A DNA stretch of 64,000 nt from an uncultured Methanomassiliicoccales archaeon. GTDB lineage: Archaea; Thermoplasmatota; Thermoplasmata; Methanomassiliicoccales; UBA472. The stretch spans positions 555,818 through 619,817 of the forward strand of contig CAVQBH010000009.1 of assembly GCA_963710685.1 (NCBI GenBank), given 5' to 3'. Each line of letters begins with the position of its first letter. The stretch's first letter is position 1. This document shows positions 7,216 through 58,247 of the stretch, one piece after another. A program made the translations under genes and the position numbers. The notes under the pieces are model-generated. The model was not told the DNA's origin and ran no database searches. It was given only the letters and a program-made list of their open reading frames with translations.

Positions 7216-7224
7216 GTGCTCACC

Positions 7225-10939: not shown

Positions 10940-10949
10940 CTCGTTCGCC

Positions 10950-11897: not shown

Positions 11898-11902
11898 TCA
11901 CA

Positions 11903-33943: not shown

Positions 33944-35920
33944 ATGAATCGTCTTAATCTCACCGTACAGGAATTAACAATGGCTGCTAGTAAGAAATTG
34001 GACGCCCCTCCACCAGAGATCCGCTTGGAGCCCGGGCCTGTCAGCGACGACATCAGCATCGCTTCCAAGGCCAACGAGAGCGCGGGCCTCAAATCCTGGC
34101 TGGAAGGCGGGGACGATTTCCTGACCTGGCTCAACGAAGGGGCCGAAGATCATCAGGCGGCCGCCAACGAACCGGGGACCGGGGTCGAGGCCAGCTCGGA
34201 TCTCATCAACGAGCTCAAGGACCGGCTGAAGAAGTACGAGGATGAACTGCGCCTGCTGAAGCAGAAGCTGGCCGAGGCGTTCATGGAGAACGCTTCGGAT
34301 TCGGCGAGCAAGGACGTGGAGGTCGACCTGGGCCGGAAATTGCAGGAGCTCATCGAGGCGAAGGACCGGCTGGGGCTCGAGGTGGACCGGCTGCAGACCC
34401 TGAACGACGAGATAAAGCAGCATTTCCAACAATCACTGGCCAATGTTTCGGAGGACAAATCGTCCCTGCTCATGAAAGAGATAGAGCTCAAGGAGAAGGA
34501 GTCGAAGCTCCTGACCCGGGTGAGGGAGCTCGAGCTCAGGCAGCGTGACGCGTCAAGTTACACATCGAAAGAGGTGGAGGCGAACCTGGAGGAACGGTTC
34601 CACACCGAGCTCAGGCAGAAGGAGACGGAGTGGAGGTACAAGGAACAGCAATTGCTCAACCGCATCCAGGACATGGAGAAGGAGCTCCTCCGGCTCTCGA
34701 TGGACCTCAAGCTGAAGGACGACAAGCTGAAGATCTCCAATCTGGGAAAGCCGGACATAGAGAAGGCCGTTTCCCAGAAGTACGAGGAGATGATGGCCAA
34801 GGAGAAGGAATCGGCCATAATGCAGAGGGAGCTGGACCAGATGAAGATCCAGGTCCGGGAGAAGGACGACGAGCTGAAGAAGATCAAGGACGTCGTGACT
34901 TACAAGGAGGACGAGCTCAACCGCCGCGAGGAGGACATGATGTACCGGGAGAAGGTCCTCTCCGGGGAGAAGCTCAAGTTCGAGGAGACCCGCAAGGAGC
35001 TCAGCGGCACCGACGAGGTGGAGCTCAAGAAACGCATCGAAGAGCTCCGCAACGAGGTCCAGAAGAAGGAAGAGGACCTGCGCGCCAAGGAACGGTTCCT
35101 GAACACCAAGGCGGAGGAGATCCGGTTGCGCGAGTCCGGCATCATCGAGGACGAGATACTGGCCCGTGAGAAGGACCGGATCCTCGAAGCGACCCAGGCC
35201 AAGGTCAAGACCGGCAACACCAGGTTGGACGACCTGCTTCTCGGAGGCATACCGTTCGGTTCCAACATCATGGTCCACGGCCCGCCCTTCGTGGGCAAGG
35301 AGGTCATGGTCAACTCGTTCATCGGGGAAGGCCTGAAGAAGGGCATCCCGGCGCTGTGGGTGATCACCGACAAGACCCCCAAGGACATCCGGGAGGAGAT
35401 GAAGTTCGTGCTCTCCGGCTACGACGAGTATGAGAGGAGGGGGCTGGTCCGGTACATAGACGCCTTCTCACGTTCGATGGGTGACGAGTCCAAGGACGAG
35501 TTCACGGTCTATATCGACGAGCCGACCGACCACGAGAAGATATCCGAGGCGGTGGAGACCATCACCAAGTCGTTCCGGGAGAGCCACGAATACTACCGGA
35601 TGGCGTTCCGTTCCATTTCCACGCTGATAGCGTATTCGGACCCCAACACCGCGTTCCGGTTCCTGTCGCCCCTGTGCGGCAAGCGGAAGAGGGACAAGGC
35701 GGTCTCGATGTTCACCGTCGAGAAGGGCATGCACGGGGAGCAGGAGATCCAGATGCTCGGCTCCATCATGGACGGCATGATCGATTTCAAGGTCGACCAG
35801 CTGAAGACCTTCTTCTCGGTGCAGGGCATCAGCGAGGTCCAGTCCCGTGCCTACATCAGGTACACGGCATCGAAGCATGCATTGCAGATCGGCTCGTTCG
35901 CCCTGGACCACATCCGGTGA
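33944..35920 (+). CDS. long coiled-coil protein fused to a C-terminal KaiC/RecA-like (FlaH-like) domain with deviant Walker A
   Basis: Residues ~85-415 are heptad-rich and E/K/L/R-biased. The C-terminal ~240 aa is KaiC-like (RLDDLLLGGIPFGSNIMVHGPPFVGKEV). The Walker A Ser/Thr is replaced by Glu (35279-35302). Start is 33944 or 33980. Confidence 0.7.
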   Translation: MNRLNLTVQELTMAASKKLDAPPPEIRLEPGPVSDDISIASKANESAGLKSWLEGGDDFLTWLNEGAEDHQAAANEPGTGVEASSDLINELKDRLKKYEDELRLLKQKLAEAFMENASDSASKDVEVDLGRKLQELIEAKDRLGLEVDRLQTLNDEIKQHFQQSLANVSEDKSSLLMKEIELKEKESKLLTRVRELELRQRDASSYTSKEVEANLEERFHTELRQKETEWRYKEQQLLNRIQDMEKELLRLSMDLKLKDDKLKISNLGKPDIEKAVSQKYEEMMAKEKESAIMQRELDQMKIQVREKDDELKKIKDVVTYKEDELNRREEDMMYREKVLSGEKLKFEETRKELSGTDEVELKKRIEELRNEVQKKEEDLRAKERFLNTKAEEIRLRESGIIEDEILAREKDRILEATQAKVKTGNTRLDDLLLGGIPFGSNIMVHGPPFVGKEVMVNSFIGEGLKKGIPALWVITDKTPKDIREEMKFVLSGYDEYERRGLVRYIDAFSRSMGDESKDEFTVYIDEPTDHEKISEAVETITKSFRESHEYYRMAFRSISTLIAYSDPNTAFRFLSPLCGKRKRDKAVSMFTVEKGMHGEQEIQMLGSIMDGMIDFKVDQLKTFFSVQGISEVQSRAYIRYTASKHALQIGSFALDHIR

Positions 35921-36070: not shown

Positions 36071-36535
36071 TCAACTGTACCCGACGACCCCGGTTCCGGG
36101 CTTGATATCCCCTTTCTTCTGCACGTTGATCTGCGGGAGCGGGAAAGGCGGCGGGAGCTTGATGTCCCTGGCGACCAGCAATGCCGTCGGCAGACAATTG
36201 GAAACGACGGTGTTGTGCACCACGTTCGCATCGTCCACCGGCATCGAGCCGTCCTTGGTCCATTCCGTCATGATGGCGTCGGCGTTCCCGTCACCGATGA
36301 GCTGGCCCTCGATCTTGATGAAGCCCATCCCGGAATAGTTAGCGGTGAACCGGAAATCAACGGAAACCGACTCGTTCGAGATCCTCACCACCTGGGTGAT
36401 GCTGCTGTTCTGATCGATGCGGATGTTGGCCACGCGCTCCCCTGATCTGGAGAATCGTTTCGCCTCGATGACGCTCATCTCGAAGGATTTGACCTGCATA
36501 TTCACCGTGCACCCTATCGGTGCAAGCGATATCAA
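36071..36535 (-). CDS. hypothetical protein with SecB-like sequence pattern
   Basis: About 142-154 aa. The C-terminal NCLPTALLVARDIKLPPPFPLPQINV resembles the SecB block CPNILFPYARE...FPQLNLAPVNF (recalled). The start may be ATG 36499. Confidence 0.35.
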   Translation of the reverse strand: MISLAPIGCTVNMQVKSFEMSVIEAKRFSRSGERVANIRIDQNSSITQVVRISNESVSVDFRFTANYSGMGFIKIEGQLIGDGNADAIMTEWTKDGSMPVDDANVVHNTVVSNCLPTALLVARDIKLPPPFPLPQINVQKKGDIKPGTGVVGYS

Positions 36536-36571
36536 ACTTTGTTATTCTTCCTAGAAGAGAAGGATAAGAAG

Positions 36572-36644
36572 TGCCGCAGGCCGGGCTCGAACCAGCGACT
36601 TCAAGGTCTTCAGCCTTGCACTCTCCCAGCTGAGTTACTGCGGC
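36572..36644 (-). tRNA. tRNA-Phe (GAA)
   Basis: Reverse complement folds by eye as a cloverleaf: acceptor GCCGCAG/CTGCGGC, anticodon arm CAAGG-CTGAAGA-CCTTG, T-arm GGTTCGAGCC. CCA is not encoded. Confidence 0.9.
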
Positions 36645-36678: not shown

Positions 36679-36870
36679 GGTTGGCATGTCCGCGGTCCAG
36701 CGGGATAATGGCGTGCTTGCCCGTTCGAATGCCTTTCTCCGTGCCCCAAACATGCACCCGAGGACAGATACATCGTAGACTAAACCTTAATTTCGCAAAT
36801 GGCCAGACAGCTCAGAATGTTTAAATACTCACGATTAACTGCTTTCACGATACGATTTTGAGGCTCCAGT

Positions 36871-37815
36871 ATGGTCAAAGTTGCCTTTCGAAAGAGCATT
36901 CTGAGCAGATCGAGCCGGGCTCGATGCATACGCCGGGACGAAGAAGGGATAGCCTCGGTAATAGGCACCATCATGGCCCTCTTAATCTTCATGACCTTCA
37001 TGACGATGTTCGTCAACACCTACATCCCGATCTGGATGAAGGAGAACGAAAGACTCCACATGAACGACGTACAGGATCAGATGGGCGAGATCAAGGGAAA
37101 GATCGACAATCTGATCGTGGGCGCAGAGATCACCGGCACCAGCACCATCAACACATATCAGACCCTAACCATGGGAGCGGACGGCATACCGATCTTCGCC
37201 TCTCCCACCGCAGGGGCAGTCATCCTGAAACCAACTGGCGTCTCCGGCAGCGGGGTCAATGTGCAATTCAATTACACGGTGAACAACCAGAAGGTGCCGG
37301 TCAACGAGAACGGGGGCGGTAAACTGGAGTTCTACGCTCCGAACCGCTACTATGTGGAGCAATGGCTGGCCTACGAGAACGGTGGCCTGATCGTGAAGCA
37401 GGACCAGGGAGAGGCCATGAAGGCCATGCCCTCGTTCGGACTGACCAAGTCTGGAAATAACGTCAACGTCGATTTCACCCAGATCGACATCGTCGGCACG
37501 AACAGCACCATGGCCGGTACCGGGGTGGCCGGCGTCAACATCGACCTGATCTATCTGGATGCCCAGAAATACACGCCGCATTTCGGGACCGGGGCCGATC
37601 AGAACACGACCATGTTCAAGTTCACCACGGTATATGGGGTGTCGTTCATGAGCTTCATGAACAGCACCATAAAGAATGCGAACCTCCAGCCCAGCGATTA
37701 CAAATTGACCGAAACCGTCAACACAGACAAATCGAACACGATTACCCTGAAGATAATCAACACCGGAACGTTAACGCTCAACCGGGCGTTCGTCAAGATT
37801 GATATCGGTGTGTAA
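36871..37815 (+). CDS. archaeal type IV pilin-like protein (class III signal peptide, Pilin_N/DUF1628-like N-terminus)
   Basis: A basic N-terminus followed by EEGIASVIGTIMALLIFMTFMTMF, which is the (A/V)S(P/V)VIG hydrophobic-helix pattern of archaeal prepilins. A TTTAAATA box lies about 45 nt upstream. Confidence 0.6.
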   Translation: MVKVAFRKSILSRSSRARCIRRDEEGIASVIGTIMALLIFMTFMTMFVNTYIPIWMKENERLHMNDVQDQMGEIKGKIDNLIVGAEITGTSTINTYQTLTMGADGIPIFASPTAGAVILKPTGVSGSGVNVQFNYTVNNQKVPVNENGGGKLEFYAPNRYYVEQWLAYENGGLIVKQDQGEAMKAMPSFGLTKSGNNVNVDFTQIDIVGTNSTMAGTGVAGVNIDLIYLDAQKYTPHFGTGADQNTTMFKFTTVYGVSFMSFMNSTIKNANLQPSDYKLTETVNTDKSNTITLKIINTGTLTLNRAFVKIDIGV

Positions 37816-37827
37816 GGGCGATTTGAC

Positions 37828-39555
37828 ATGACCAAAGAAGCAGACCCGATGGCCCGAGAGAACAGGAAAAAGGGAGACCAAGCCAAGGACAGCTCCATGC
37901 TTCGGGCTAAGGAGGGCTACATCCGATTCCTAAAGCGGGTCGCACCCAACCGGGGCATACGCGTATTACTTCCCTCAAAGACCGTGGAACTGAAACGCAT
38001 CCAGAAAGGTTCACACGTCACCGAGATCTCGGTGAACAAGAACCCCAACATCGAGATCCTGGAGACATATCCGGTCCAGGAACCGTACAGTTACGTCCGG
38101 GTCTCCTTCAACAACGAGAACAGCGAATATCTCTACGAGGTGATCGAGCCCGAATTGAACCGGGAGGAGAAGGATCTGCTGGCCCTTATCAAGGACACCT
38201 TCCAGCGTACTCTCGGCTACGAGTGGGAGAAGCTCACCTCATTGGACAAGGAGGAGTATCTGAGGGAGAGCGTGGACTCCTTCATCCAGACCAGGGGCAT
38301 CAAGGTCGAGCCGATCGCCAAGAAGAAGCTCGGCTACTACATCATCCGCGATTTCATCGGCCATGGGGTCATCGACGTGATGATGCGCGACGACGATATC
38401 GAGGACATCTCCTGCGACGGGTTCAACATCCCCATCTTCGTTTCGCACCGCAAGTACGAATCGGTGCGGTCCAACATCATCTTTGACAACGAGGACTCCC
38501 TGAACAACTTCGTGGTGACGCTATCGCAGAGAAGCGGGAAGCAGATATCCGTTTCCAGCCCGATCCTGGACGGGACCACCATCGAAGGGCATCGTATCCA
38601 GGCAACATATTCACGTGAGGTGACCACCAGGGGTTCCACGTTCACCATCCGGCGGTTCAAGCACCGCCCGTTCACACCGGTCGACCTGCTGAAGTACAAG
38701 ACCGTCTCCCCGGAGATGATGGCCTATCTGTGGCTAGGGGTGGAGAACGGGGAATCGATGATCCTGTGCGGCGGCACGGCCTCCGGCAAGACGTCGGCGC
38801 TGAACTCGCTGGCGCTGTTCATCCCGCCGGGGGCGAAGATCGTCTCCATGGAGGATACCCGCGAGATCAACCTGCCCCATGAGAACTGGATACCGGGCAT
38901 GACCCGCACCGGGGTGGGGGAGAAGGACCGGGACGGCAAGTCGGCCGGGGAGATCGACATGTTCGACCTGGTGCGTGCCGCCCTCAGACAGCGTCCGAAC
39001 TACATCATAGTCGGTGAGGTCCGGGGCAAGGAGACGTACATCATGTTCCAGGCGATGGCCACGGGGCACTCGACCTATTCCACGATGCACGCCGACTCGG
39101 TCAAGTCGATGGTCAACAGGCTGGAGAACCCGCCCATCAATTGTCCCAGGATCCTGCTGACCGCCCTGCGCAATGTGCTCATCCAGGCCCAGGTGCGGGT
39201 CGGCAACGACCTGGTGCGTCGGATGAAGCAGGTCATCGAGATCGTCGGTTTCGAGCCGGAGACGAACGAACTGATCACCAACACCGTCTATGAATGGGAC
39301 CAGGCGACGGACCGGTTCATCTACAAGGGCCACTCGTTCCTGTTCGACAAGATCATGGAGATGAAATCGCTCACCCACGACGAGATGATGACCGAATTCC
39401 AAAAACGGATTGAGATCGTCAATTACATGGTGTTCAAGGACATGACCGACTACCGTAAGATCTGGGCCATCACCAATGCCTATTACAAGGATCCCGAGAA
39501 GACCCTCGCCCGGGTAAGGAAGGAAACCGAGGAGGAGAGCAAGAATGTCGCCTGA
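37828..39555 (+). CDS. FlaI/ArlI-type (VirB11/GspE superfamily) type IV pilus assembly ATPase, paralog 1
   Basis: 575 aa. Walker A CGGTASGKTSALN, Walker B NYIIVGEVRG, His-box region ATGHSTYSTMHA. Confidence 0.9.
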   Translation: MTKEADPMARENRKKGDQAKDSSMLRAKEGYIRFLKRVAPNRGIRVLLPSKTVELKRIQKGSHVTEISVNKNPNIEILETYPVQEPYSYVRVSFNNENSEYLYEVIEPELNREEKDLLALIKDTFQRTLGYEWEKLTSLDKEEYLRESVDSFIQTRGIKVEPIAKKKLGYYIIRDFIGHGVIDVMMRDDDIEDISCDGFNIPIFVSHRKYESVRSNIIFDNEDSLNNFVVTLSQRSGKQISVSSPILDGTTIEGHRIQATYSREVTTRGSTFTIRRFKHRPFTPVDLLKYKTVSPEMMAYLWLGVENGESMILCGGTASGKTSALNSLALFIPPGAKIVSMEDTREINLPHENWIPGMTRTGVGEKDRDGKSAGEIDMFDLVRAALRQRPNYIIVGEVRGKETYIMFQAMATGHSTYSTMHADSVKSMVNRLENPPINCPRILLTALRNVLIQAQVRVGNDLVRRMKQVIEIVGFEPETNELITNTVYEWDQATDRFIYKGHSFLFDKIMEMKSLTHDEMMTEFQKRIEIVNYMVFKDMTDYRKIWAITNAYYKDPEKTLARVRKETEEESKNVA

Positions 39556-40585
39556 AATCTCAGACCTGTTCTCGAAGGTGGATTCGGGTAAAAGCACCTA
39601 CATGAAGACCAAGAAGATAGGCGAGCACAAGAAGGAGCTGGGACCCCGGGTGGTCCGGCTGCCTCACGGCGTCGTCCCCGACTACGTCAAGCTCACCAAG
39701 TACCAGGAGTTCTGCTGGAGAACGATCGGGAAGATCGTCCATCTCCGGGCCAAGCCCAACCCCAAGCAGGAATCGCTCCTGCTCCAGGCGCACATGCGGA
39801 TGCGGCAGGAGGAGTTCGTCGCCTATGTCTGGATGACGACCCTGCTGGTCGGCATCATCGCCGCACTGATCAGCGTCTTCTTCGGCACCGTTTTCATCGC
39901 CTTTCTCCACATAAGTCCGGCGCTGGCCATATTCTTTTCAGTGCTGGTGGTGATCATACCCACCCTGATGACCTATGTGCTCATCAACGGGACGCCCGGT
40001 TCGAGGGCCAAGGCGCGCAAACGGGACATCGACAAGCGGATCGGTCCAGCGATGTCCTTCATCTCGGCCATGGCGTCCGCCGATGTCAACATCGACGTCA
40101 TTTTCAAGGAGCTTTCCCGCCAGCCGATCTACGGGGAGATCCAGAAGGAGTCGGAGTGGATCACCCGGGACACGGAGCTGCTGGGCATCGACATCCTCAC
40201 CGCCATCAGCAAGGCGGCGCAGCGTACCCCGTCGCAGCGATTCCAGGAGTTCCTGCAGGGAGTGGTCACCACCTCCACTTCCGGCGGTCAGCTGAAACCC
40301 TACTTCCTGCAGAAGGCGGAGCAGTTCGAGAAGGAGCACAAGCTCGAGATACGCGGCCAGCTGGAGACACTGGGCCTCATGGCCGAATCGTTCGTCACCG
40401 TGGTGGTCGCCTTCCCGCTGTTCCTGATCGTCATCATGGCCATCATGGCCATCGTGCCCGGCGGCGGCGGGAGCGCCAGTACGACCATAACCCTGCTCTA
40501 TGCGGTCGTGGGCCTGATGGTGCCGATGTCGCAGTTCGGTTTCATCTTCTTCATCTGGAACATCACGAAGGAGTCAACGATGTGA
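39545..40585 (+). CDS. type II secretion system F (FlaJ/TadB-like) platform protein, single-domain, part 1
   Basis: One T2SSF-like domain (IDKRIGPAMSFISAMASADVNIDVIFKEL...GGQLKPYF) flanked by TM helices. 11-nt overlap with the upstream ATPase gene. Confidence 0.8.
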   Translation: MSPEISDLFSKVDSGKSTYMKTKKIGEHKKELGPRVVRLPHGVVPDYVKLTKYQEFCWRTIGKIVHLRAKPNPKQESLLLQAHMRMRQEEFVAYVWMTTLLVGIIAALISVFFGTVFIAFLHISPALAIFFSVLVVIIPTLMTYVLINGTPGSRAKARKRDIDKRIGPAMSFISAMASADVNIDVIFKELSRQPIYGEIQKESEWITRDTELLGIDILTAISKAAQRTPSQRFQEFLQGVVTTSTSGGQLKPYFLQKAEQFEKEHKLEIRGQLETLGLMAESFVTVVVAFPLFLIVIMAIMAIVPGGGGSASTTITLLYAVVGLMVPMSQFGFIFFIWNITKESTM

Positions 40586-40594
40586 GGTGCTTCA

Positions 40595-41512
40595 ATGGCC
40601 ACTGACAAGAACCTGGACATAATGGACCTTAAGCAGCTCAGGAACGAGAAGAGCGACCTCACCAAGACCATGCTGGCGGTCGGCATCGTCATCGGCGTGA
40701 TATTCCTGATCATCGGCTTTCTGGACGCCATCGGTGGCCTGGAGACGCCCCTTAACTGGATAGACTATGTGGCACTGGCCCTGATGGGCTTCTCCGGGCC
40801 ATACGGTTTCTACAGCACTTACAGGCACAAAAAGGTCTGCAACATCGAGGCCCGTCTTCCCGACTTCCTTCGGGACGTCGCCGAGGCCGGGCGTTTCGGC
40901 ATGACCCTGGCTGAAGCGATCAAAGTATCGTCCCGGGGCCGGTACGGGCCGCTGACGCCGGAGATCCAGCGCATGGCGGCGCAGATCGAATGGGGAGTGC
41001 CCGCGGCGGAAGCGCTGAAACTCTTCGCTGAACGCGTCAACACCCCTCTGGTCAACCGGATGATCTCGATCATCATCAAGGCCAACGACGCCGGCGGGAG
41101 CGTTGCCGACGTCCTCACCATGGTGGCGCACGACGCCCGGGAAAGCATGCTGGACCAGAGCGAGCGGAGCCTGGAGATGTCGACCTACACCGTCGTCATA
41201 TATGTGGCGTTCGCGGTGTTCCTGGCCACCATCTTCATTCTGAACGCCACCTTCCTCCCGAAGATGGCGGAGGCGGGCGCGCAGGTGTCCGCAGGGGCGG
41301 CAGCGGCGGGCATCACCAACATGCCAGCCACCATCAAGACCGCGGTCATCCCGCAGATCCAGTTGATCTTCGTCATTTCGGTGGTCATCCACGCCTTCGG
41401 GGATGGCATCCTTGCTGGAGTGTTGCAGGACGGCCGCATCGCCAACGGACTGAGGCATTCGTTCATCATGCTGCTGCTGGGCCTCATCGGCATCAAGCTG
41501 GGAGGCACCTGA
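40595..41512 (+). CDS. type II secretion system F (FlaJ/TadC-like) platform protein, single-domain, part 2
   Basis: One T2SSF-like domain (LPDFLRDVAEAGRFGMTLAEAIK...AGGSVADVL) plus TM helices. In the same frame as the previous gene, separated by one TGA and three codons. Confidence 0.8.
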   Translation: MATDKNLDIMDLKQLRNEKSDLTKTMLAVGIVIGVIFLIIGFLDAIGGLETPLNWIDYVALALMGFSGPYGFYSTYRHKKVCNIEARLPDFLRDVAEAGRFGMTLAEAIKVSSRGRYGPLTPEIQRMAAQIEWGVPAAEALKLFAERVNTPLVNRMISIIIKANDAGGSVADVLTMVAHDARESMLDQSERSLEMSTYTVVIYVAFAVFLATIFILNATFLPKMAEAGAQVSAGAAAAGITNMPATIKTAVIPQIQLIFVISVVIHAFGDGILAGVLQDGRIANGLRHSFIMLLLGLIGIKLGGT

Positions 41513-41513
41513 G

Positions 41514-43245
41514 ATGGAAGCTTCGAAAGAGCCGATGGACGAGGTAGAGGAGGTCCTGAAGAGGAATCGTCGAGCCCGAGGGCAAGAAGACCTCCCAGAA
41601 GGGCTTGGGCAGCAGGTACCTGGGGTTCATGCTGAAGATAAGGAACCGGCCCATGAAGGTCATGCTTCCCTCCGAGTCGAAGTTGCCGGAGAATGAGTCG
41701 GGCGTGATCACTGAGGTTCCAAAGATCGCTGAGAACAATGTCGATGAGGTGGAAATAACACCGGTGCTCAAACCGTACTCCTTCGTACGGATCAAGTTCG
41801 ACAATACCTCGTCGGAGTACATCTACGAGGTCATCGAGCCTCACCTATCCGACGACGAGATGTACCTGCTGGACATGCTCAAATCGTCGCTTATCCTGAC
41901 CCTCAACCTGACCATCAAGAAGAACGGAAAGGAAAAGATGGACATCCTGCGGAAGGCCACCGATGAGCTCCTCAAGGTCTTCGCCGTCAATCCGAACGCG
42001 CTTTCCAAGGAGCGCATCCTCTACTATCTGCGCCGCGACTTCATCGGCTACGGAGCGATCGACGTCATGATGCTTGACGCGAACGTGGAGGATTGTTCCT
42101 GCGACGGGGTCAACATCCCGCTCTACATATTCCACCGCAAGTACGGTTCCATCAGGTCCAACGTCAAGTTCGAGAAGGAGGTGGAGCTAGATTCGTTCGT
42201 GGTATGGCTGGCCCAGAAATGTGGAAAGCACATCTCAGTGGCCAACCCAATGCTGGACGCGACCATCCCGGACGGCTCCAGGCTGAACGCCACCCTGGGA
42301 ATGCACGTCACCAAGAGAGGCTCATCGTTCACCATAAGACGGTTCAAGGAGAACCCGTTCACGCCCATCGACCTGCTCAAGTTCAAGACCATGAGCACCG
42401 AGATGATGGCCTACCTGTGGATATCCACGGAGTTCGGCTCGTCCATGCTGGTGTGCGGCGGTACCGCCTCCGGAAAGACGACCACTCTGAACGCAGTCTT
42501 GCTGTTCATCCCGCCCCAGAAGAAGATCATCAGCATAGAGGACACCAGGGAGCTCAACCTGCCCCACGAGAACTGGATCCCCGGCCTGACCAGGGAGGGT
42601 TTCGGCGGCAAGAAGGCGAACAGCACCGGTTCCGTCGATATGTTCGACCTGCTGACCGCGGCGCTGAGGCAACGCCCCGACTACCTGATGGTCGGTGAGG
42701 TCCGTGGCAAGGAGGCGTATGTCGTCTTCCAGGCCATGGCCACTGGTAAGACATCCTACTCCACGTTCCATGCTGAGGATGTCCAGTCGATGGTGCACAG
42801 GATGGAGAACGACCCGATCAACCTGCCCCGGGCGCTGATGACCGCCTTGGACATCGTCATGCTGCAGGCCCAGGTCAAGGTCGGCACCAAGATGACCAGG
42901 AGGGTCAAGTCGCTGACCGAGATCGTCGGCATGGACGCGGAGACGGGCGAGCTGATCACCAATGCGGTATTCAGCTGGAACCCGGCCGATGACACCTTCA
43001 ACTATTCCGGTCATTCGTACATCTTCGAAAAGGTCAGGACCATCAAGTCCTGGTCGCCTCGGGAGATGGAGCGAGAGGTGAAACGCCGCGTCGAGATACT
43101 GGAGTACATGAAGAAGACCGGTGTCGACAACTACAAGCAGGTGGCTAGAATCATCTCCGCCTATTACAAGAGCCCGGAGAGGGCCATCAAGGAGATCCGG
43201 GAGAAGATGACCGTGGCACAGCTGGCACCTCCCCCGGTGAACTGA
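41514..43245 (+). CDS. FlaI/ArlI-type type IV pilus assembly ATPase, paralog 2 (5' end frame-interrupted as assembled)
   Basis: Walker A CGGTASGKTTTLN, Walker B DYLMVGEVRG. The N-terminus reconstructs as MEASKEPMDEVEEVLKRN...|...GKKTSQKGLGSRYLGFMLKIRN, which parallels paralog 1 (MTKEADPM...KEGYIRFLKRV). The frame change is near 41565-41580. Confidence 0.85.
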
Positions 43246-43669
43246 GGGTGCGAGTCGCCTTTTCTCATTCGTTCTCATCGAGGTATGGCAAATTGGGTCT
43301 TCACTGGAGTAGCGGGACATCGCGCATCAGGCAACGCCTGAAGGTCCCCGCTCCGGTTAAATGGACTGATCATCGCTGTGGGCCGATGGACAGACCAGCT
43401 TCTGAAGCCTTGTCAAAGCCGCCGTGAACGTCCAGAACTTCGGGTAAAACATTCATCAGTGGCCAGGGAATCGCCCAGCACATCTCTGTGGCCGGGGCGG
43501 CCATTTCTATGCCGGTCATGAATGATTCCGAATCGAATGACGCTCCCTCGATGAGACAGGTGCCCCATAGAATACCCTCGCCCGGGCCACCGCTGCCACT
43601 GTCCGAAGGGTCCGAAAAAATGGGTAAGGCGTTTGGAAGAGGTTTCCGGCGGGTCCCGGCTCACTTCTT

Positions 43670-46600
43670 ATCTTCTTTGGCCGTCTCCGATGGCTCGGTC
43701 TGTTCGGGGCTGTCCTTGACGACCTTCTTCGGGACCATCTTGCGCTCGGACGAGCGCTTGACGATCTTGCGGAAGGGCTTGGCCTGTATCCACGGCCTCT
43801 CCGGCCTGGGGAACCTCGGGGGCCTTTTCGAACACGGTGCCGCACTTGGAGCAGATGGCGGCCCCCTTCGGGTTGAGGGTGCCGCATGCCGGGCAGGGCA
43901 TGGAGCCGGCCTTGCGGTCCTCCTCCTGCTTGGCCACCCAGGCCTCGAAGGTCAGGTATGCCGGCTCGGTCTTGAGCCAGTCCATGAACTTGTCCTCCGA
44001 GTACTTCTTGCCCAGGGCGGCCTTGGCCTGCTCCCGGAACCCGTTGACATACTCCTCGTACTGGCCTCCTCATCGACGTCATATAGTCGTCCTCGGAAAC
44101 CACCTCCATCGGCTCGGTCATGAACTTCGCGCCGCACTCCGGGCATTCCTTCGACCTCGCCGGTATCCAGGTACCACACTCGGAACACTTGGCCGTCTCC
44201 GTCTCGAACTCGGTGCCGCACCGGGGGCAGCGTTTGGAGCTCTCCGGGATCAGGGCGCCGCATTCACCGCACTCCACCATCTTGCTCAACCCGTGCTTGT
44301 ACAGGTAGACGGAGAAGACCAGGATGATGGCCAGGACGATGACCGCTATGAGGATGAATATCCAGAATGGCACCGACTGGGGCTTGAATATCTCCACGAT
44401 GTTGATCGGGATGAGCAGCGCTGTAGGTCGGGCCGGAGTTCAGCGTCACGCTGACCGAGTGTGAACCGGACCGGTCCGTCGGTATGAAGAGGTAACCGCG
44501 TGTAGGCGCCAGTGCTGTCGGTCTTGGTCGTCATCGCCTGCCCCACCGGCAGACCCGCGGCGTCCAAAAGCCTGATCGTTATCGATTGGTTGGCCAGGGG
44601 GTAGCTGCCGTCGACGTTGGTGATCATTCCGGTGACCAGTATCGAATCTCCCGGCTGGAAGTCGGTCTTCGACCCCACGTTGATGACGATCAGTGGGTTC
44701 GGCGCGTTGATGGTGAAGTACCTGGCTGTCGATGTCGTTGGTGTAGTTCGATTCGTCGATCGCTTGCCGGGAATTCATCTCCACCACGAGAGTCATAGAC
44801 CCCGGAGGTGACGTTCACCACCCACGGGAAAGTTATCTCGGTCGATGCTCCGCCGGCCAGGTCCTTGGTCATGTTCGTCAGGTATTCAGTGCCGTTGTCG
44901 TTCTTTGACATAGATGCTTACGACGACGCCGTCCGCCGGCTTCAGGCCTTCATTCGCAATGGTGAACGTGATGTCGATCGTCTGCCCCTGAACCGCTTCG
45001 GAGGTTGTGCTCGCCACTCCGGACGGTGCCACGGAAACACCGCCCAGGAACTGCAGGTCGGCCCGGTTGTCGACCACCAGGAGTGAACTGGAGACCACGT
45101 TGTTCTTGTAGTTCATCTCCGTGATCGGGGTGTCATTACCATGGGTGAACGGGTTCACCTCGACCGTTATCAAGCGGCTTTGGTTGTTTCCCGATCCCTG
45201 CAAGGTGCTGGCGATCCATGGGAGCTGGATCTCGGCGGTCGCCCCGGAGGCGATGCTCGGTACCATCACATCACCGATCTTCGTACCGGTGCTGGTCGAT
45301 CCGAGCCAGAAGCGCACCATGAAGTCCGTGGCCACGGACTCACCGGTGTTCATAACGGTGGCGGTCAGGATCGACCGAATCGCCTATGAACACCTGTGTC
45401 ACCAGGGAATCGGACAACTTGAACTGCAGGCTCGTCGCCACCAGATCTGGATAGCCCAGTACATTACCATAAGGCTGGCCAGGTTGTTGTCCTTGGAAGA
45501 TTCCAGGAGCAGGTTCTTCTCATCGATCACGACCGTTATGTTGTGGTCCCCGGGAAGCATGTGCTGCCATGTCGCCAAGGCCACGCCGGTCTGACCGCTC
45601 CGGATCGCAGGCAGGGTGAAGTTCCCGATGAGGGCCTTCACACCCTGGAACGTATCATAGAAGCTGATCACGACCGACTGGTCCATGTTGTCGCCGCTGT
45701 TCGTGATATCGGCCCGGATCGATAACGGTGGAATTGGTCACCGGTGTCGCCGGATTAACCACTATTTCGTTGGTGAAGATGCTCAGGTCAGGGACTCCCT
45801 CGACCGAAATGGTCGTCTGGTTCCAGTTGTCGGCGCGGCTAATCTGCGGTATGGCCATGAACGGGTCCACGGTCACGTTCAGTGTGTGAGCGCCCACTGG
45901 ATAGGTCGCTGCCCAGGGAACGGTAATGTTCGAGTGTGCACCGGGCGCGATCGACTGGATAGTGCTGTCAGCGATTATCGAGTCCGTCGTCAGGTCCTTG
46001 AAGCGGACCAGCACATTGTAGGCGGTCACGACCCCGATGTTCGTTACGTTGGCGGTCAGGTTCAACGATTGACGCCCCGAGCCGGTGTGTATGTGGACGC
46101 CCAGAAGGGCGGGTCCAGCTCCGGCAGCGCTCCCAGCACGTTCACGCTGGTCACGATGTCGCTTCTGGCTATTTGGGTCCCATTGTTGATCAATGGGTCT
46201 GGAGCGACCTGCGTGTAGACGCCGAGTATGCCCCCGCTGCTCTGATAGGCATGGCCGTTGAACCAGTAGGTGGCGTTTACCCGATAGTTGTCGAAATGGG
46301 GTGCGCCGGTTGAACTGATCGTGTCCGAAAGCAGTTTGATCGTGGCAGTTCCCATCCGCCCCGGTCTTGGCGGTGGCGTATTTCGCCCCGACCGACCGGT
46401 CGACCTCGACATAGGCGTTGGGTATGCCGTGCACCAATGTTCCATCCATCACGGATACCGTCAGCCAGCGGTAGCTCCAGGCCCTGGCCTGGTCTTGCAG
46501 CACGATCGACGGTATCGACACGGATGTCAATACTGCGGTCGCTTGCCCGCCGAAATTGGCCACGTTGGATTGGAAGGTGACGTTGGTGGCGGTCAGGTTC

Positions 46601-47733
46601 CCGAATGAAGACGAGGGAGCGGTGAAGTTCGCGGCCACGACACTGTCATTTGCCAGGACCACCTTGGAATGGCCGTCGATGATGACCTTTATCGATCCGG
46701 GCAGAACCGATCCGTCGCGGGCCGAAAGAACGGCGTTGTCGGTCAGGAAGATCTGCATCGAATTGGTCGAGGTTATCGCCCCTGAGTCCATCACGATCGA
46801 CCCGTTGCCAGACACAGTTATCTTGAACTGGTTTGGAAGGTCGTTCAGTATCTTCAGCGTGCCGTTGGTGATGATCAATTTGGCGTTGTCCTTGATCAGG
46901 ATGTCTCCCTTGACCTGGTACAGTCCACTTCCGCTGATGGGGAGGACGTTAGTTCCGGAAAGGATCACCGATCCGTAGGCAACTGCCAAGGTCGGGAATA
47001 CGACCGTCCTGACGTCGACGTTCTGGACCATGTTGGGGAAATGGGCAAGGTTGGTCGATATTCCACCGTTACTGTCATCCAGTACATACAATCCGTTCGC
47101 ATTCCGGTAACTGAAGGCGAGATTGTAGTCGAAAGCCTTGCCGTTCCTCAGGTTCGAGCTGTTCAGCACATCGCTGAGCAGCGGTATCTTGACCATCCCG
47201 TTAGTCGCTGTCCGGTTGTAATTGGATGCGGTCTTGCCGAGGTAGGTAAGGATTGCCTGCGGAGGGGTTGCTACTGGTCCGGTCTGGCCCAGGTAGAATG
47301 CGGCTGCGCCCGTACCGAGATTGGTGGGCGTCACGCCGACGTTTCCGACCGGCACGTTCTGACTGTCGGTCACATCCAATGAGGACCAGCGGTAAAGGGC
47401 CACTTCTGGTTGCGTTTGTATATTGAGTGACAATCGATCAAAGTGAATCGTTGCCCCTCCAATATTGGTGAAAGACAATGTTAAAGTCTTCAGTTTGCTT
47501 ATTGTATTAACGCCGTTAGCATACAAATCAAAAGACCCACTTTGTGTCTGACCAAGATTCTGAGAAGGTCTCAAGTTTGTATTCTTCAATGGTGAACCAT
47601 CAACTGAGTATTGAAGATAGTTCGTTGTTGAATATCCGCGTTTCTGTATAGTAAACAAATGAACTGTAAGACTACTGATTGAGCCTGTCAAATCTCCGAG
47701 ATTATAGCTCACAATATTCATTGTTTTGTCCAT
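43670..47733 (-). CDS. large surface adhesin-like protein: CARDB repeats + Ig-like domain + TM helix + cytoplasmic zinc ribbons (about ten frame changes as assembled)
   Basis: CARDB-type blocks (LNLTANVTNIGVVTAYNVLVRF...GAHTLNVTVDPF...NWNQ; GDHNITVVIDEKN...DNN). ITIRLLDAAGLPVGQAMTTKTDSTGAY. TM helix FWIFILIAVIVLAIILVFSVYLY. Then CGECG..CPRCG, CSECG..CPECG and CPACG..CSKCG. Lys-rich tail ...TAKEDKK with a reconstructed stop at 43670. Confidence 0.65.
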
Positions 47734-47780
47734 TCAGCAACGTTATAGACCAACGCGTCACCTTGAGCATACAAGTCCAT

Positions 47781-49269
47781 TCAACATTCTGTCCAGTCGC
47801 GTCGCTTGTCGCATCGGCTGGTAATCACTTTGGCCAGATTCTTGGTCTTGAACACGTTGGTGCCGGAATAACCACCGGTGCTGTTGTTAACGGTCAGACC
47901 ATAGAGATTGGCGACCGATTGATCAAGTGCTACCAATTTGTGGTAAGCGCCCTTTGCCGCATTCAACCCGTTGTTCTCATTGATGTTGTTCAGCGGGATG
48001 TACGAGTCGGCAGCCACAAAGTTCGTCGATCCGCCGATGGTGATGTTGCGGTATGTCGGCAGCCTCATGTCGATCGTGACCCAGATCCTGTCGATGTAAA
48101 CGTTTCCAGACCTCGAGTTGGTGTAGTTCAGTACCAGTTTGCCCAGGCTCTGGGCCGACATCTTCGGCAGAGGGAAACTCATCGTCGTGTTCACGTTCGT
48201 GCCCGAGGGGGAGCTGGGATCATAGGTGGGGTCAGTCGTCAAGGTGGTGACATTTGTCGTTCCGAACTGCTGGGTGTAGTAGAACGCGTCATTCGTCCCT
48301 GCGATCGCCATGGTGGTGCTGGTCTTGTAACTTACATGCAGAATGATGCTCGATATGTCAGCCGCTTCGAAGACCAGTCCGCCCATGTCGAAACCGGTCG
48401 TGTAGAGCTTCTGGTTCGGAGCAACGGTCACGTTCTTGGTGTCGTTCATGGTCATTGACAGTGCCTTTTGACCGCCGTATCACCGTGCTCAGCGGGCCGA
48501 ACGCGGCGTTCACGTCCCTCTCCAGGTAATAATCAACGTACTGCCGGGCCCGGGTGTCCGAGGCGAACTGGTAGTTGTTGCTGTAGGGAGCGGTCGGCGC
48601 CGCAATGGAGTTGTAGGTGCCATTGTCGTACATGTTGAGGACCCTGGAGCCGATCATCGTCACATCACTGGACATGAAGAGCATGACCGGTGAGCTGCTG
48701 AACGCCAGGGTCGGGAAATAGGTCGAATTGAACACGGTGGTCAATCCGGACACCGTGGAATCGATCAATGAGAATTTTGCGTCATCGACCAGGATGTGTC
48801 CCGAGAACGATATGTTCGACGTTCTTGACTCGAGGTAGCCGCCGTGCCTGACCACAACCCCAAGTGCTGGGATGAGGTTGCCTCCTAGAACGTCGACGGT
48901 CAGTGTCGAGTTGTCAAGGATCAGTATGCCGCCATCTTCAACGGTCAACGTCAGTGCCTTTACGCCGGTGCCTATCGGGACATTACCGGTATAGGTAGAA
49001 CGGAAGACCAGGGTCGAGTTCACTATCTGGACCACTCCGCCGGCCCTGATTGTCAGGTTTCCATCGAACGGGAATGAACCCTGGTTCTGAACCGTCAGGT
49101 TTTTGGAATAGCCAGTACCTATGATCGTGTCTCCGTACGGGATCTCTCCCTGGGCAGATACCCCCACCGGGGGGACCGCTATCAGCAATACCCCCAGGAA
49201 AGATGATATTACCATGCACCAAACGATTGCGAAGCTAACAAGCTTGTTGAATCCAGCACCCAGCCTCAT
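47781..49269 (-). CDS. secreted beta-helix-like adhesin module (may be the N-terminal part of, or a partner to, the downstream CARDB protein; one frame change)
   Basis: Signal/anchor VSFAIVWCMVISSFLGVLLIAVPPVGVSAQG. Repeated NSTL/DSTV/SSDVT turns typical of right-handed beta-helices. Pieces 48358..49269 and 47781..48455 join at about 48470 (...AFGPLSTV|YGGQKALSMTMNDTK...). Confidence 0.6.
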
Positions 49270-49363
49270 TATAACACCCGATAAATGACCATTTTGATAT
49301 TTTGGAAAATAACGTTTGACTCTATAAATAGATGGGTACTTCTATCACACTTAGAAATTAAGA

Positions 49364-49383
49364 ATATGCTGTTTCCAGCATAT
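49364..49383. repeat. perfect 8-bp inverted repeat in the AT-rich adhesin upstream region
   Basis: ATATGCTG-tttc-CAGCATAT read directly. Lies between the stop of the coiled-coil gene (49460) and the adhesin start (49269). Confidence 0.6.
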
Positions 49384-49459
49384 CGCCAACAAATGGAAAA
49401 ATAATTACCAAAATGCAAAAAATAGGAGCATAAAAATAAGGATAGGGAGGGGGCCGCCC

Positions 49460-50639
49460 TCACTTCCTCTTGATTATCTTTCTTATCGAAACGGAACGCT
49501 TTACTTCCGATTTCTTCTCCTCTTCCGGCTCCTTGGGCTTCTCTTCCTCGGCCGACGCTTCCTCCACGTGCTTCTCTTCTTCGACCGTTTCCTCCTTCGG
49601 TCTCGGCTCGGGCTCTTCCTTCTTCGGTTCGGTACGGCGGGAGTCCTTCTTCTTCGGGGCCTCGATCATCTTGCCGTCCTTGAGCTTCGCATCGCAGGCC
49701 CAGCAGCGCTCTGACTTGGAATCGATGATGGTGCCGCAGTTGGGGCACTCGAACTCCTCCTTCTTCTCTTCGGCCGGTTCTTCCTCTGCGATCTCCTCTT
49801 CCTCGGCCGGCTCCTCTTCCTCCTCTTCGGGTTCATCCATGGGTGCCGGTATCGAGTTCATCTGGGGGGCATCATCCTCGACGCTGGCCTCCATCTTGGC
49901 CGCGTTGTCCTCTTCCATGATCTCCTCAGGCTTGGTCGCCTCGAAGACCGGTTCCGGGACGTGGGGCTTGACCGGGGCCCGGGCGTGGCGCCCTTCCACT
50001 CGCCTCCCTCTGGGTGAGGGCCTTTTCCCTCTCCGCCAGGGTGCGCTCCCATTCCACGAAGCGCTTCTGTTCCTCCAGCACGATCTTCTTGCTGTTGGCC
50101 AGCAGATCGTTCTGCTCCTCCACGACCTTGATCTTGGCCAGGAGGTCCTCCCTCTTGGCGCTGAGGGACTCGACCATCTTCTTCAGGTCCGACTCCTCGG
50201 CGAGCATGCGCTCCTCCATCTTGGTGATGCGTTCCCCGGAATCGCGGAGACGCTTCTCGTAGGCGGTGGTGAGCTCGGTCAGGCGGAGCAGTTCGGACTC
50301 CTGCCGGGCGATCTCCCCCTGGCGCTTGTCCAGGTTCTCGCGGCCCGCCTGGATGTCGTCCTCCCTGGCCTGCAGGTCGGCCTGCATGCCGGGACAGCTC
50401 CTCCTGGAACTTGTTGGCTCGGTTCTCCCTCGGGGCCAGGTCGCCCTCGCGCTTCTTGATCTCGTTCTCCTTCTGCCAAGATTGCTCTCCTTCTCGGCCA
50501 GGTCGCGCTGGTCCGAGCGCAGCCTGGGCTCCATCGAGTCCAGGTCCTCGCGGCGCTTCTTTATGTCGGTCTCTTGGCTCTTGATCTTGTCCTTGAACTC
50601 TTCAATGACTTGCCAAATCGGTACTGAATCATCTGCCAT
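49460..50639 (-). CDS. coiled-coil protein with acidic tract and C-terminal zinc ribbon (frame-interrupted as assembled)
   Basis: Heptad-rich E/K/R/L sequence (…ERITKMEERMLAEESDLKKMVESLSAKREDLLAKIKVVEEQ…). EEEEEE tract. FECPNCGTIIDSKSERCWACDAKL. Basic tail. At least three frame changes (about 50480-50400 and about 49990). Confidence 0.6.
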
Positions 50640-50665: not shown

Positions 50666-51487
50666 CTAGGCCAACGTTGGCCCCAGAATAGTAAGCCCAT
50701 GATCGCCCACCTCCATGGTGTGGCGTTCCATCGAATGCTCCGTGGCCCTCATCTTCTCCACCCGCATGTACCGCACCAGCTTTCCCCGGGTACGGTCCAG
50801 GCCGAGCTCGATGATGCCGTCCACCAGGAACCCTTCGTTCCCGAGCAGGTCGGAGGGCGAGCCCGGATTGCGCTCCATGACGATGAACGACATCAGATTG
50901 TAGTCCCTCAGCGTCTTGAAGAAGTAGAACATCTTTTTGCGCATGCCCTTCACGTCGTCCATCAGGGAGTACAGCGCCCCCAACGAGTCCAGGCTGAAGA
51001 CGGTGAACCGGTCGCCATGCTTCTTCTTGTAGTATCCGATGGTCTGGATGATGAACTGGAGATAGTCGGTGGGTGAATCGACCTCGACGATCTCGTCCAG
51101 CTCGCGCAGGTCGGTGAAATCGGAGATCTCCAGGTTCGAGGTGAGCTTGAGGTTCAGGGACCTCATGTTCCGGATGTGGCTGTCCGCCGTCTCCTCCAGC
51201 GTGATGTACAATCCGAACTCGTTGGTCTTATCCAGATAGGAAGACATCATCGAGTAGCAGAACGAGGTCTTCATCGAGCCTGGAGGTCCGGTGATCAGCA
51301 CCACCTTGGGGACCTCGATGTCCGTCCTGAATACCTTGTCCAACCCTTGAATGGAATTCCTGAACACTTTATCGCACCGCCCGGATTTCCTTATTTTATC
51401 GGCGGTCAGGTAATAAACCTTTTCGAGCTGGGCACCGTAGTTTCGATAATTTGAACGGCGGTCCAGACGGCGGTGCATGCTGGCCAT
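50666..51487 (-). CDS. KaiC/RecA-like ATPase-fold protein with deviant Walker A
   Basis: 273 aa. KVVLITGPPGSMKTSFCYSMM (51266-51289), where Met replaces the invariant Gly before Lys. KaiC-like C-terminal RYMRVEKMRATEHS block. Confidence 0.7.
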   Translation of the reverse strand: MASMHRRLDRRSNYRNYGAQLEKVYYLTADKIRKSGRCDKVFRNSIQGLDKVFRTDIEVPKVVLITGPPGSMKTSFCYSMMSSYLDKTNEFGLYITLEETADSHIRNMRSLNLKLTSNLEISDFTDLRELDEIVEVDSPTDYLQFIIQTIGYYKKKHGDRFTVFSLDSLGALYSLMDDVKGMRKKMFYFFKTLRDYNLMSFIVMERNPGSPSDLLGNEGFLVDGIIELGLDRTRGKLVRYMRVEKMRATEHSMERHTMEVGDHGLTILGPTLA

Positions 51488-54500: not shown

Positions 54501-55708
54501 ATGCTGAATTCATTTGTCGAGTCCTGAACATATTGATGCCCCATCACTCCTAGTTGTTGCATCAGTAGCTGGGTTTCGTCAGCCATTCGTTTGGATATTG
54601 TACCGTAATGGACGATGTTTCTATCTTTGTGAACGGATCCATCACCATCGATCATTCCCGAAAGTAAGGCTCCAATTACAGATTTCGGGGACTGGTAAAA
54701 GGCTTCTGGAATGTGCTTGCTCTCGGCTCTCCAAGTGACATCGATTCCGAAATTTTCGGCCAGATAATCGTTCAGTTCATTGTCGGTTATCCTGATCTGA
54801 TGCATTATCTTGTCGAGGTTGTATGCATCTTCCTGATTGGTGCTCCTGCACTGAATCGAAACATCCAAACCAAACTCAGCTTTCAATGCAGCTTGTACAT
54901 GCTCGATAACGCCAGGAGACGCCGAGAAGAAGTTGAAGACCCCTTTCTTGATGTCGTTACCATAGCGCTTTTCAATGTGCCCGTCCGACAAGAATTGACC
55001 AATCAAATAGGCGATGTTCTCATTGAGTTCTTTGGGCTGACCCTGCCAGTCTGACAATTTGACATTGGGCAGATTGTCTGGATACTCCAACCGCATGACC
55101 ACGCTGTCACCAGAAGAAAGATCCTTAGCCTGTTTCCATTCATATTTCAGGTCACGATTAAGGACCTTGAATGGTTGTGATGGGGTTGATGTTACCGATA
55201 TTCCATTCTCAAGTGTTACTTTAATGAGTTCCTTTTCCGGCATCTCATACAATTCGGTGACCGGACACTTGCCTGACTGGGTGTAGACCATGTCCCCGAT
55301 TTTGACGTTCTCGATCGGGATCAATCCCTTCTCCGTGAGAACGCGGGTTCCTGGAACGAAACATTCTCCGACCACCCTGGCGCTCTTCTTGGGAGCGGAT
55401 TTCGCGGTGATCCCCATGTCGTTCATGGCGTAGAGGATCCTCCGGTGCACCGGCTTGAGACCGTCGCGCACGTCAGGTAAAGCCCTGCCGACGATGACGC
55501 TCATGGCGTAGTCGATGTAGCACTTCTTCATCTCGATCTCTATCGATTTCGGGACCACCTGGAAGCCAGCGTTCTTGTCCTCCGGCACGAACGTTGGGGC
55601 CGCCGGCGATGCGGACTTGCTCCATGGCACCGGTGTTATCTGCTCCTCCGTCTTCTCCGGCACGTTCTCTTCGGCGGGCTTGTCGTTGTGTTCTTCGTTA
55701 TCTGCCAT
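51536..55708 (-). CDS. gyrA: DNA gyrase subunit A, containing an intein; C-terminal half frame-interrupted about 6 times as assembled
   Basis: [36 protein letters not shown], active-site [13 protein letters not shown] beta-pinwheel blocks ([45 protein letters not shown]) are spread over three frames. Confidence 0.9.
53969..55363 (-). mobile_element. GyrA intein (465 aa) with a double-LAGLIDADG homing-endonuclease domain
   Basis: Interrupts ...SARVVGE|C...N|[10 protein letters not shown]. Starts CFVPGTRVL and ends [12 protein letters not shown], followed by Cys+1. LAGLIDADG-like [14 protein letters not shown] and [15 protein letters not shown]. Sampled GC is 40% (54181-54240). Confidence 0.85.

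Positions 55709-55718: not shown

Positions 55719-58247
<2,529 letters not shown>

Follow-up and report, generated by a model that had tools for sequence, protein, structure and literature searches.

Organization of the pilus operon

A putative type IV pilus assembly operon, in which two related secretion ATPases flank the genes of a membrane platform, is found in a 64,000-nucleotide (nt) stretch of contig CAVQBH010000009.1 (GenBank assembly GCA_963710685.1) from an uncultured Methanomassiliicoccales archaeon. This full stretch is called the window, and all coordinates given here are positions in it. Five tightly packed genes on the + strand span 36871-43245, and a candidate promoter element lies ahead of them:

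36820..36827, + strand: candidate TATA box TTTAAATA, about 44 nt upstream of the ATG of the pilin-like gene
36871-37815, + strand: pilin-like gene, 314 amino acids (aa), with a class III signal peptide
37828-39555, + strand: ATPase-1 (A1), 575 aa, with T2SSE and PilB3_C domains (Pfam)
39545-40585, + strand: T2SSF-1 (F1), 346 aa, with one T2SSF domain (Pfam)
40595-41512, + strand: T2SSF-2 (F2), 305 aa, with one T2SSF domain (Pfam)
41514-43245, + strand: ATPase-2 (A2), with T2SSE and PilB3_C domains (Pfam) and a 1-nt insertion at about 41570

An initial annotation, made from the DNA letters, had read the gene order as pilin-like, ATPase-1, T2SSF-1, T2SSF-2, ATPase-2, and the positions of the open reading frames (ORFs) and the Pfam matches agree with that order. 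The junctions that it described are also exact in two cases, since the start of F1 overlaps the stop of A1 by 11 nt and the gap from F1 to F2 is 9 nt. A GAGG motif stands 7 nt ahead of the pilin-like ATG. Together with the box TTTAAATA, it may represent an archaeal promoter and ribosome-binding site. The two ATPase genes and the two T2SSF genes between them are referred to below as the cassette.

The two ATPases

A1 and A2 are 51% identical, with 73% positives, over 536 aa (BLASTP); roughly 50-60% had been estimated by eye for the catalytic core. The Walker A, Walker B and His-box regions recognized earlier are also present in both proteins, as CGGTASGKT, VGEVRG and ST[MF]HA. Across 70 A1 and 70 A2 sequences, conservation reaches at least 95% in each of the two clades for Walker A (CGGTASGKT), the Asp box (M/I)EDTRE, NLPHENWIP, Walker B (VGEVRG), FQAMATG and the His box ST(M/F)HA. 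The alignment contains 146 columns that are conserved and identical in both clades and 19 that are fixed differently. Nine of these 19 clade-specific columns fall in A1 residues 204-267, around the conserved stretch DGSR...RGS.FTIRRF. Judged by these motifs, both proteins are predicted to be catalytically competent members of the secretion superfamily. The initial annotation had allowed for one copy being catalytically dead, and all motifs are intact in both.

Comparison with the related locus L004 gave ratios of nonsynonymous to synonymous substitution rates (dN/dS) of 0.067 for A1, 0.060 for A2, 0.064 for F1 and 0.061 for F2. These values point to strong and equal purifying selection on both ATPases, neither of which appears to be decaying. 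Equal selection and intact active sites argue against simple redundancy or decay of the second ATPase.

Among solved structures, both ATPases are closest to GspE of A. fulgidus (afGspE; 2OAP/2OAQ) and to FlaI (4IHQ/4II7), to which the window proteins add a poorly conserved N-terminal extension of about 55-75 aa. A1 matches 2OAP at E 1e-125 and A2 at E 9e-135, near full-length in each case and with both the N- and the C-terminal domain covered. The next matches of both are to FlaI of S. acidocaldarius, and those to CpaF and VirB11 are far weaker. The scores of A1 and A2 (413 and 444 bits) do not reach the FlaI NCBIfam equivalog cut-off of 550 bits, and no archaellin or ArlF/G genes were found near the cassette. 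The description of these proteins as FlaI-type consequently holds in a broad sense only, both being below the FlaI cut-off and closer to GspE 2OAP than to FlaI. The PilT family TIGR01420 is still more distant: its cut-off is 319 bits, and the two proteins score 43 and 49. The AIRNLIRE motif cannot be seen in A1 or A2, and their alignment with afGspE extends over its full length and takes in the N-terminal domain, which does not fit the short architecture of PilT. Because the FlaI and PilT cut-offs are missed and 2OAP is the best structure match, A1 and A2 are assigned to the GspE/PilB3-like pilus ATPases, and are neither archaellum motors nor PilT-like retraction ATPases. Pfam matches to PilB3_N and PilB3_C link them to PilB3, euryarchaeal clade 2 of Makarova et al. 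2016 (PMC4858521).

An N-terminal motif common to A1, A2 and F1, [KR][VI]x[LVM]P, was considered as a defining feature and rejected, since it occurs in only about half of the A1 and A2 orthologues, is rare in F1, and is not found in the corresponding ATPases E1 and E2 of Cuniculiplasma.

Many homologous ATPases of the wider family have 1000-1500 aa, and their match to the ATPase profile is divided into two or three parts that complement each other, interrupted near profile positions 265, 315-336 and 404. These proteins are P0167, P0183, P0195, P0202-P0204, P0208, P0232, P0237, P0241, P0248, P0255, P0257-P0259, P0266, P0269, P0468, P0485 and P0489. Pfam matches to inteins were obtained in P0468, P0485 and P0489. 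The pattern suggests several recurrent intein insertion sites in the pilus ATPase family.

The reading frame of ATPase-2

The ATG at 41514 (MEASKEPMDEVEEVLKRNR..., MEASKEPM...) is out of frame with the body of A2, and its frame stops at 41696. The uninterrupted A2 ORF runs from a TTG at 41605 to 43245 and encodes 546 aa. The first 19 codons (41514-41570) thus lie in one frame and the remainder in the next, and a DNA alignment with the closest relative, L003, locates a single extra T at about 41570 in the window. This frameshift was overlooked in the initial annotation. The closest A2 orthologue, P0001 (the L003 product), is 94% identical and is encoded in one frame over 580 aa (MEASKEPMDEIEAVLKKNREANTK...YMGFLLK). 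Intact A2 orthologues have 574-580 aa; in L004 and L005 the protein has 574 aa and its gene starts 1 nt after T2SSF-2. In the window, the 19 codons before the insertion still encode the conserved MEASKEPMDE..., and with the extra T removed ATPase-2 would have about 576 aa. The 1-nt gap between T2SSF-2 and ATPase-2 and the N-terminal pattern shared by the two ATPases, both pointed out before, hold only after correction of the frame.

The frameshift is most likely an assembly error, because three other genes of this region are also broken in frame and are intact in relatives. The gyrA gene (51536-55708, - strand), which is essential and carries a LAGLIDADG intein, has at least five frame switches. 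This damage indicates that the window comes from an assembly prone to insertion and deletion (indel) errors; gyrB (55719-58151) also bears an intein, yet is intact. The gene of a giant surface protein downstream of the operon (about 1870 aa in relatives) changes frame at least seven times when searched by tblastn with the undamaged L004 protein of 1873 aa, and is intact in L001, L002, L004 and L005. Next to it, in the region 43664-50639 (- strand), a gene for a 361-aa coiled-coil/zinc-ribbon protein has one frame change and is intact in L001, L002 and L004. An error in the assembly is also favored because the A2 body shows no decay (dN/dS 0.06) and the 19 codons upstream of the insertion are conserved. 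Similar frame damage inside the pilus operon was seen in the loci L035, L019 and L022 from long-read metagenome-assembled genomes (MAGs).

It is very improbable that the frameshift is genuine and that ATPase-2 is dead or in decay in this organism. The 1-nt insertion at about 41570 does split the conserved A2 start from the gene body, as expected of such a copy. Against this, the remaining A2 gene is undisrupted, with 92% protein identity to L004, a dN/dS of 0.06 and all motifs intact, and the switches in the essential gyrA of the same window show that indel errors are common there. Moreover, a downstream in-frame TTG or ATG would give A2 a length comparable to that of the natural 548-aa orthologue P0011.

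A link between the frameshifts and TCGA sites, as expected of a methylation-linked basecalling error, was also considered. Four of the eight sites touch TCGA. With 8.3 TCGA per kb, 10-25% of windows of that size would do so by chance, and the idea was dropped as too weak. Elsewhere in the window, between 6000 and 14000 on the - strand, there are implausible translations rich in Arg, Gly and His (e.g., 6004-6585 and 11898-12467) and gaps between membrane-protein ORFs. They suggest further frameshifts in a membrane complex gene cluster at 6000-14000.

The split platform

The ArlJ/FlaJ profile has 555 positions, of which T2SSF-1 is aligned with 6-243 and T2SSF-2 with 267-542. Because each covers one half of this profile, F1 and F2 together represent one platform protein split in two.

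Platforms divided in this way are also found in systems with one ATPase. The sampled loci of Methanoplanus limicola and of an Aenigmatarchaeota MAG resemble the window in having two half-size T2SSF genes after an ATPase gene, and differ from it in that this ATPase is the only one, none following the platform genes. A split platform after the ATPase has likewise been described for system 1 (Epd) in a 2026 preprint (10.64898/2026.04.22.720090). The bacterial Tad system (TadA/TadB/TadC) combines a split platform with a single ATPase as well, but the similarity of CpaF/TadA to the window ATPases is much lower (E about 1e-40).

A further comparison is offered by the haloarchaeal PilB/PilC system, which corresponds to system 2 in Makarova et al. 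2016 (PMC4858521) and in the 2026 preprint (10.64898/2026.04.22.720090). Its representative in a Halobacteriales MAG (L091) shares with the window a PilB3_N/C ATPase, a DUF7289 pilin-like protein and a giant CARDB adhesin-like neighbor. In contrast to the window, it has one ATPase, a fused platform gene of 785 aa, and five pilin-like DUF genes.

Conservation of the cassette

The best 120 matches listed for each of A1 and A2 show 69-94% identity, and those that carry a name come for the most part from Methanomassiliicoccales MAGs. A scan of one genome per GTDB species yielded 80 loci with an ATPase-2 orthologue (61-98% identity). Their labels are Methanomassiliicoccales, Methanomassiliicoccaceae, Methanomethylophilaceae, 'Thermoplasmata', 'Thermoplasmatota', and unclassified euryarchaeal MAGs. 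ATPase-1, F1 and F2 were found in the same order upstream of ATPase-2 in all 73 loci with at least 4.3 kb of upstream sequence. These 73 comprise the window, four look-up loci and 68 GTDB loci, the others being cut by contig ends. The best DNA match is L035, at 87% identity. Far from being peculiar to Cuniculiplasma, the cassette is strictly conserved in Methanomassiliicoccales and in MAGs of other Thermoplasmata.

In Methanomassiliicoccales the surroundings are also syntenic. The order in L001, L002, L004 and L005 is a KaiC-like gene, a small divergent gene, the cassette, the giant CARDB/zinc-ribbon protein, the 361-aa protein, a second KaiC-like gene and gyrA. The 2016 survey by Makarova et al. 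recorded no secretion ATPase in the Methanomassiliicoccus genomes then available (PMC4858521). The full two-ATPase cassette is found in many Methanomassiliicoccales MAGs from the environment, some of which bear the label Methanomassiliicoccus sp., and this updates the 2016 census.

Most archaeal type IV pilus loci have a single ATPase, and archaea are devoid of PilT homologues (PMC12448462, PMC11178785). No second ATPase was present in three loci sampled from other archaeal groups, each of which has one. The earlier statement that archaeal loci usually carry one ATPase is thus in line both with these loci and with the literature. The novelty that it implied for the present locus is not upheld, as two-ATPase loci are common in Thermoplasmata (73 of 73 loci with enough flank) and already appear in published cases (PMC4858521, PMC5155288, PMC12448462).

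Correspondence with the Cuniculiplasma pilus operon

A two-ATPase locus was described in Aciduliprofundum boonei by Makarova et al. 2016 (PMC4858521). By its description, to which the likeness is limited, this locus resembles the window in having two ATPases and a single pilin-like gene, the very combination that the initial annotation had noticed. In C. divulgatum, Golyshina et al. 2016 reported the arCOG01817 ATPases CSP5_0712 and CSP5_0715 around the arCOG01808 TadC homologues CSP5_0713-14, an arrangement that they likened to Aciduliprofundum (PMC5155288). The CdiP pilus of this organism has been solved recently, and its operon was named CdiPE1, CdiPFa, CdiPFb and CdiPE2 (ISME J 2025, PMC12448462). 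Compared with other archaeal operons reported, the authors considered the presence of two ATPases 'unique', and they described the requirement for a second one as 'enigmatic'. Two-ATPase loci are not discussed in the 2026 preprint, which offers a classification of archaeal type IV filament systems (10.64898/2026.04.22.720090).

The Cuniculiplasma-type loci L086 and L088/L089 show the order ATPase-T2SSF-T2SSF-ATPase with overlapping junctions, and the L088 Fa protein shares 87% identity with CdiPFa as given in the supplement of PMC12448462. The best BLASTP pairs between these loci and the window are E1-A1, Fa-F1, Fb-F2 and E2-A2; F1 matches only Fa, and F2 only Fb. A hidden Markov model (HMM) built on the A1 clade favors E1 by 49-61 bits and one built on the A2 clade favors E2 by 65-69 bits, compared with a median A1-A2 profile difference of 0.4 bits for 199 other archaeal ATPases. 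Neighbor-joining (NJ) trees were built from A1, A2 and Cuniculiplasma E1/E2 together with as many as 150 cluster representatives, and in them the A1 clade and the A2 clade each received 100% bootstrap support. These comparisons indicate that the window cassette is orthologous, position for position, to E1-Fa-Fb-E2, and that the two ATPase lineages are probably older than the split between Methanomassiliicoccales and Thermoplasmatales.

The two operons share the four-gene order, tight or overlapping junctions, two full-length ATPases, and a platform in N- and C-terminal halves. They differ in sequence, with protein identities of 36-44% for the ATPases and 29-44% for the platform halves. They also differ in their surroundings, as in the window a pilin-like gene directly precedes the cassette, which is flanked by KaiC-like and giant CARDB genes, whereas the Cuniculiplasma loci are without these neighbors. 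In one Cuniculiplasmataceae lineage, E1 is extended at its N-terminus by about 300 aa and has 840 aa in total.

We consider the locus to be the Methanomassiliicoccales orthologue of the Thermoplasmatota type IV pilus assembly cassette (cdiPE1-cdiPFa-cdiPFb-cdiPE2), with a probability of about 0.85 on the basis of sequence comparison. Several points weigh against this assignment. The deep nodes of the NJ trees have bootstrap values of 6-35%, so that the sister relation of A1 and A2 is unsettled, and the long branch of Cuniculiplasma E2 lies at the base of the tree. Because of these unresolved nodes, orthology rests on profile scores, best matches and gene order. The assignment of E1 to A1 is weaker than that of E2 to A2, with BLASTP scores of 405 versus 400 bits for Tpl_E1. 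Finally, if the frameshift described above were genuine, the strain would make an N-terminally shortened ATPase-2 or none.

The arrangement itself had already been published. Its conservation sharpens the question, posed in PMC12448462, of the reason for a second pilus ATPase in a non-twitching archaeon, and supplies many orthologous pairs for tests of a mixed ring versus two motors.

The pilin-like gene and a model of pilus assembly

The N-terminus of the pilin-like protein reads RRDEEG-IASVIGTIMALLIF, the hyphen marking the predicted cleavage site, and this is the sole ORF with a class III signal peptide in the window. With the residues that follow, the leader region reads RRDEEG-IASVIGTIMALLIFMTF. 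The basic leader, G/A at position -1 and a hydrophobic helix of about 20 residues (RRDEEG-IASVIGTIMALLIFMTFMTMFV) are the features of archaeal type IV pilins, and the protein is classified as prepilin-like, with a predicted class III cleavage site. The pattern EG-VA(S/T)(T/V)VGTIMALL..Y(V/I)P.WM is kept in 17 of the 20 orthologues listed, the other three having been listed with a spurious upstream match. A weak Pfam match to DUF7289 was obtained in the L002 orthologue only. The pilin-like protein evolves faster than the machinery genes, with 70% aa identity and a dN/dS of 0.134 relative to L004. Among the GTDB loci, a pilin-like gene directly precedes the cassette in most cases, and in one subgroup it directly follows it.

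No A24-type prepilin peptidase motif was detected in any membrane ORF of the window, and no major-pilin gene of the CdiPB type is present in it. The class III and A24 motif searches thus bear out the previous reading that the window has only one pilin-like gene and no prepilin peptidase. In C. divulgatum, the major pilin genes are located about 500 kb from the machinery (PMC12448462).

Pilus assembly at this locus most likely proceeds as follows. The gene encoded first would provide a prepilin-like protein with a class III signal peptide, further pilins probably being encoded elsewhere. The pilin precursors would be cleaved by a prepilin peptidase encoded outside the window, and then polymerized on a membrane platform made of the two half-size T2SSF proteins, which would represent the N- and C-terminal halves of FlaJ/TadC. 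Energy would be supplied by two ancient paralogous, full-length GspE/PilB3-like ATPases, whose genes would be coupled in translation to the platform gene pair, one at each end.

Possible roles of the two ATPases

We infer that both ATPases are required, are not redundant, and act on the same platform. They most likely represent two specialized motors on one platform, working either as homo-hexamers that dock alternately or as a mixed ring.

In an obligate mixed ring, A1 and A2 would alternate in an (A1A2)3 hexamer on an (F1F2)3 platform, each ATPase touching one half. Such a ring would account for the strict 1:1 co-occurrence and fixed order in 73 of 73 loci, for the tight junctions at both ends (A1/F1 and F2/A2), and for the presence of all catalytic motifs and equal selection in both copies. 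In an exploratory analysis, A1-A2 distances correlated more strongly than those of any ATPase-platform pair (r 0.94; partial r 0.755). However, this correlation may reflect rate shifts shared by two members of one family, and the mirror-tree comparison gave no specific A1-F1 or A2-F2 coupling (partial r 0.05-0.13). The split platforms with a single ATPase in Methanoplanus limicola and Aenigmatarchaeota also argue against the mixed ring, and we know of no hetero-hexamer in this ATPase superfamily. Two complete ATPase modules are fused in tandem in the metagenomic protein P0144, in favor of such a ring, but this protein is a singleton on one 5-kb contig and possibly an indel artefact. On balance, an obligate mixed ring is possible but rather unlikely.

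P0144 deserves a description of its own. It has 1154 aa, comes from a single metagenomic 5-kb ENA contig, and forms a singleton cluster. Each of its modules carries Walker A, Walker B and the His box. If the fusion is natural, it would hint at ATPase-ATPase assemblies; alternatively, an indel may have joined two neighboring genes.

The two ATPases might instead serve different substrates or conditions, alternating on the platform for different cargo (the operon's pilin-like protein versus remote major pilins) or acting as condition-specific isoforms. Archaeal ATPase/TadC modules have been argued to share or exchange pilin sets, and the A. boonei locus has been cited in that context (Makarova et al. 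2016, PMC4858521). The distance of the C. divulgatum major pilin genes from their machinery and the single pilin-like gene of the window would also fit. The two ATPase genes are nevertheless located in one tightly packed operon, where separate regulation is not obvious, and this explanation appears unlikely.

According to a third proposal, one paralogue extends the pilus and the other retracts or disassembles it. Two motors on one platform resemble bacterial PilB/PilT, and the idea has been raised for the CdiP pilus (PMC12448462). A functional difference is suggested by the 19 positions at which each clade is fixed for a residue of its own; nine lie in A1 204-267 next to the conserved DGSR...RGS.FTIR. 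Both ATPases have, however, the same full-length architecture, and neither is PilT-like (43-49 bits versus 319; AIRNLIRE not visible). A single ATPase is, moreover, reported to be sufficient for retraction with Caulobacter CpaF. The same is true of the Aap pilus of S. acidocaldarius (PMC11178785). The absence of twitching in C. divulgatum (PMC12448462) is a mild point against such a division of labor, which is quite unlikely.

Co-inheritance, equal selection, intact motifs, correlated rates and the one tandem fusion make a bolder proposal compatible with the data, namely that A1 and A2 form an obligate alternating hetero-hexamer matched to the two-half platform or, in a variant, that one of them is a dedicated archaeal retraction motor. 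This proposal is put forward tentatively, as something that may well turn out not to hold. If true, the hetero-hexamer would, as far as we know, give the GspE/PilB/FlaI superfamily its first heteromeric motor, and the variant would provide the first dedicated archaeal retraction motor.

Neighboring genes

The genes around the operon, and a more distant mobile element, are the following:

20842-21843, - strand: IS110-family transposase gene (DEDD_Tnp_IS110 and Transposase_20)
33944..35920, + strand: KaiC/FlaH-like ATPase gene, PF06745 at E 1e-19, domain at about residues 420-620
36071..36535, - strand: conserved small protein, 154 aa, divergent from the pilus operon
36571-36644, - strand: tRNA-Phe (GAA), between the small conserved gene and the promoter region of the pilus operon
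43664..49269, - strand: giant surface protein, in which CARDB repeats are followed by a C-terminal membrane span and zinc ribbons (CARDB and zinc ribbons by Pfam)
50666-51487, - strand: second KaiC/FlaH-like ATPase gene, its position conserved in relatives

The KaiC-like gene at 33944..35920 is found in the equivalent place in L001, L002, L004 and many GTDB loci. Its product begins with a charged stretch of about 400 aa which, by eye, resembles a coiled coil. The KaiC-like neighbors of the cassette show weak similarity to FlaH/ArlH, far below the cut-offs. KaiC-like genes near pilus loci have been suggested to be regulators (Makarova et al. 2016, PMC4858521), and the two that bracket the pilus and adhesin region may have such a role. 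The small protein encoded at 36071..36535 has no Pfam or NCBIfam match, and a gene of 140-148 aa is found at its position in L001, L002 and L004.

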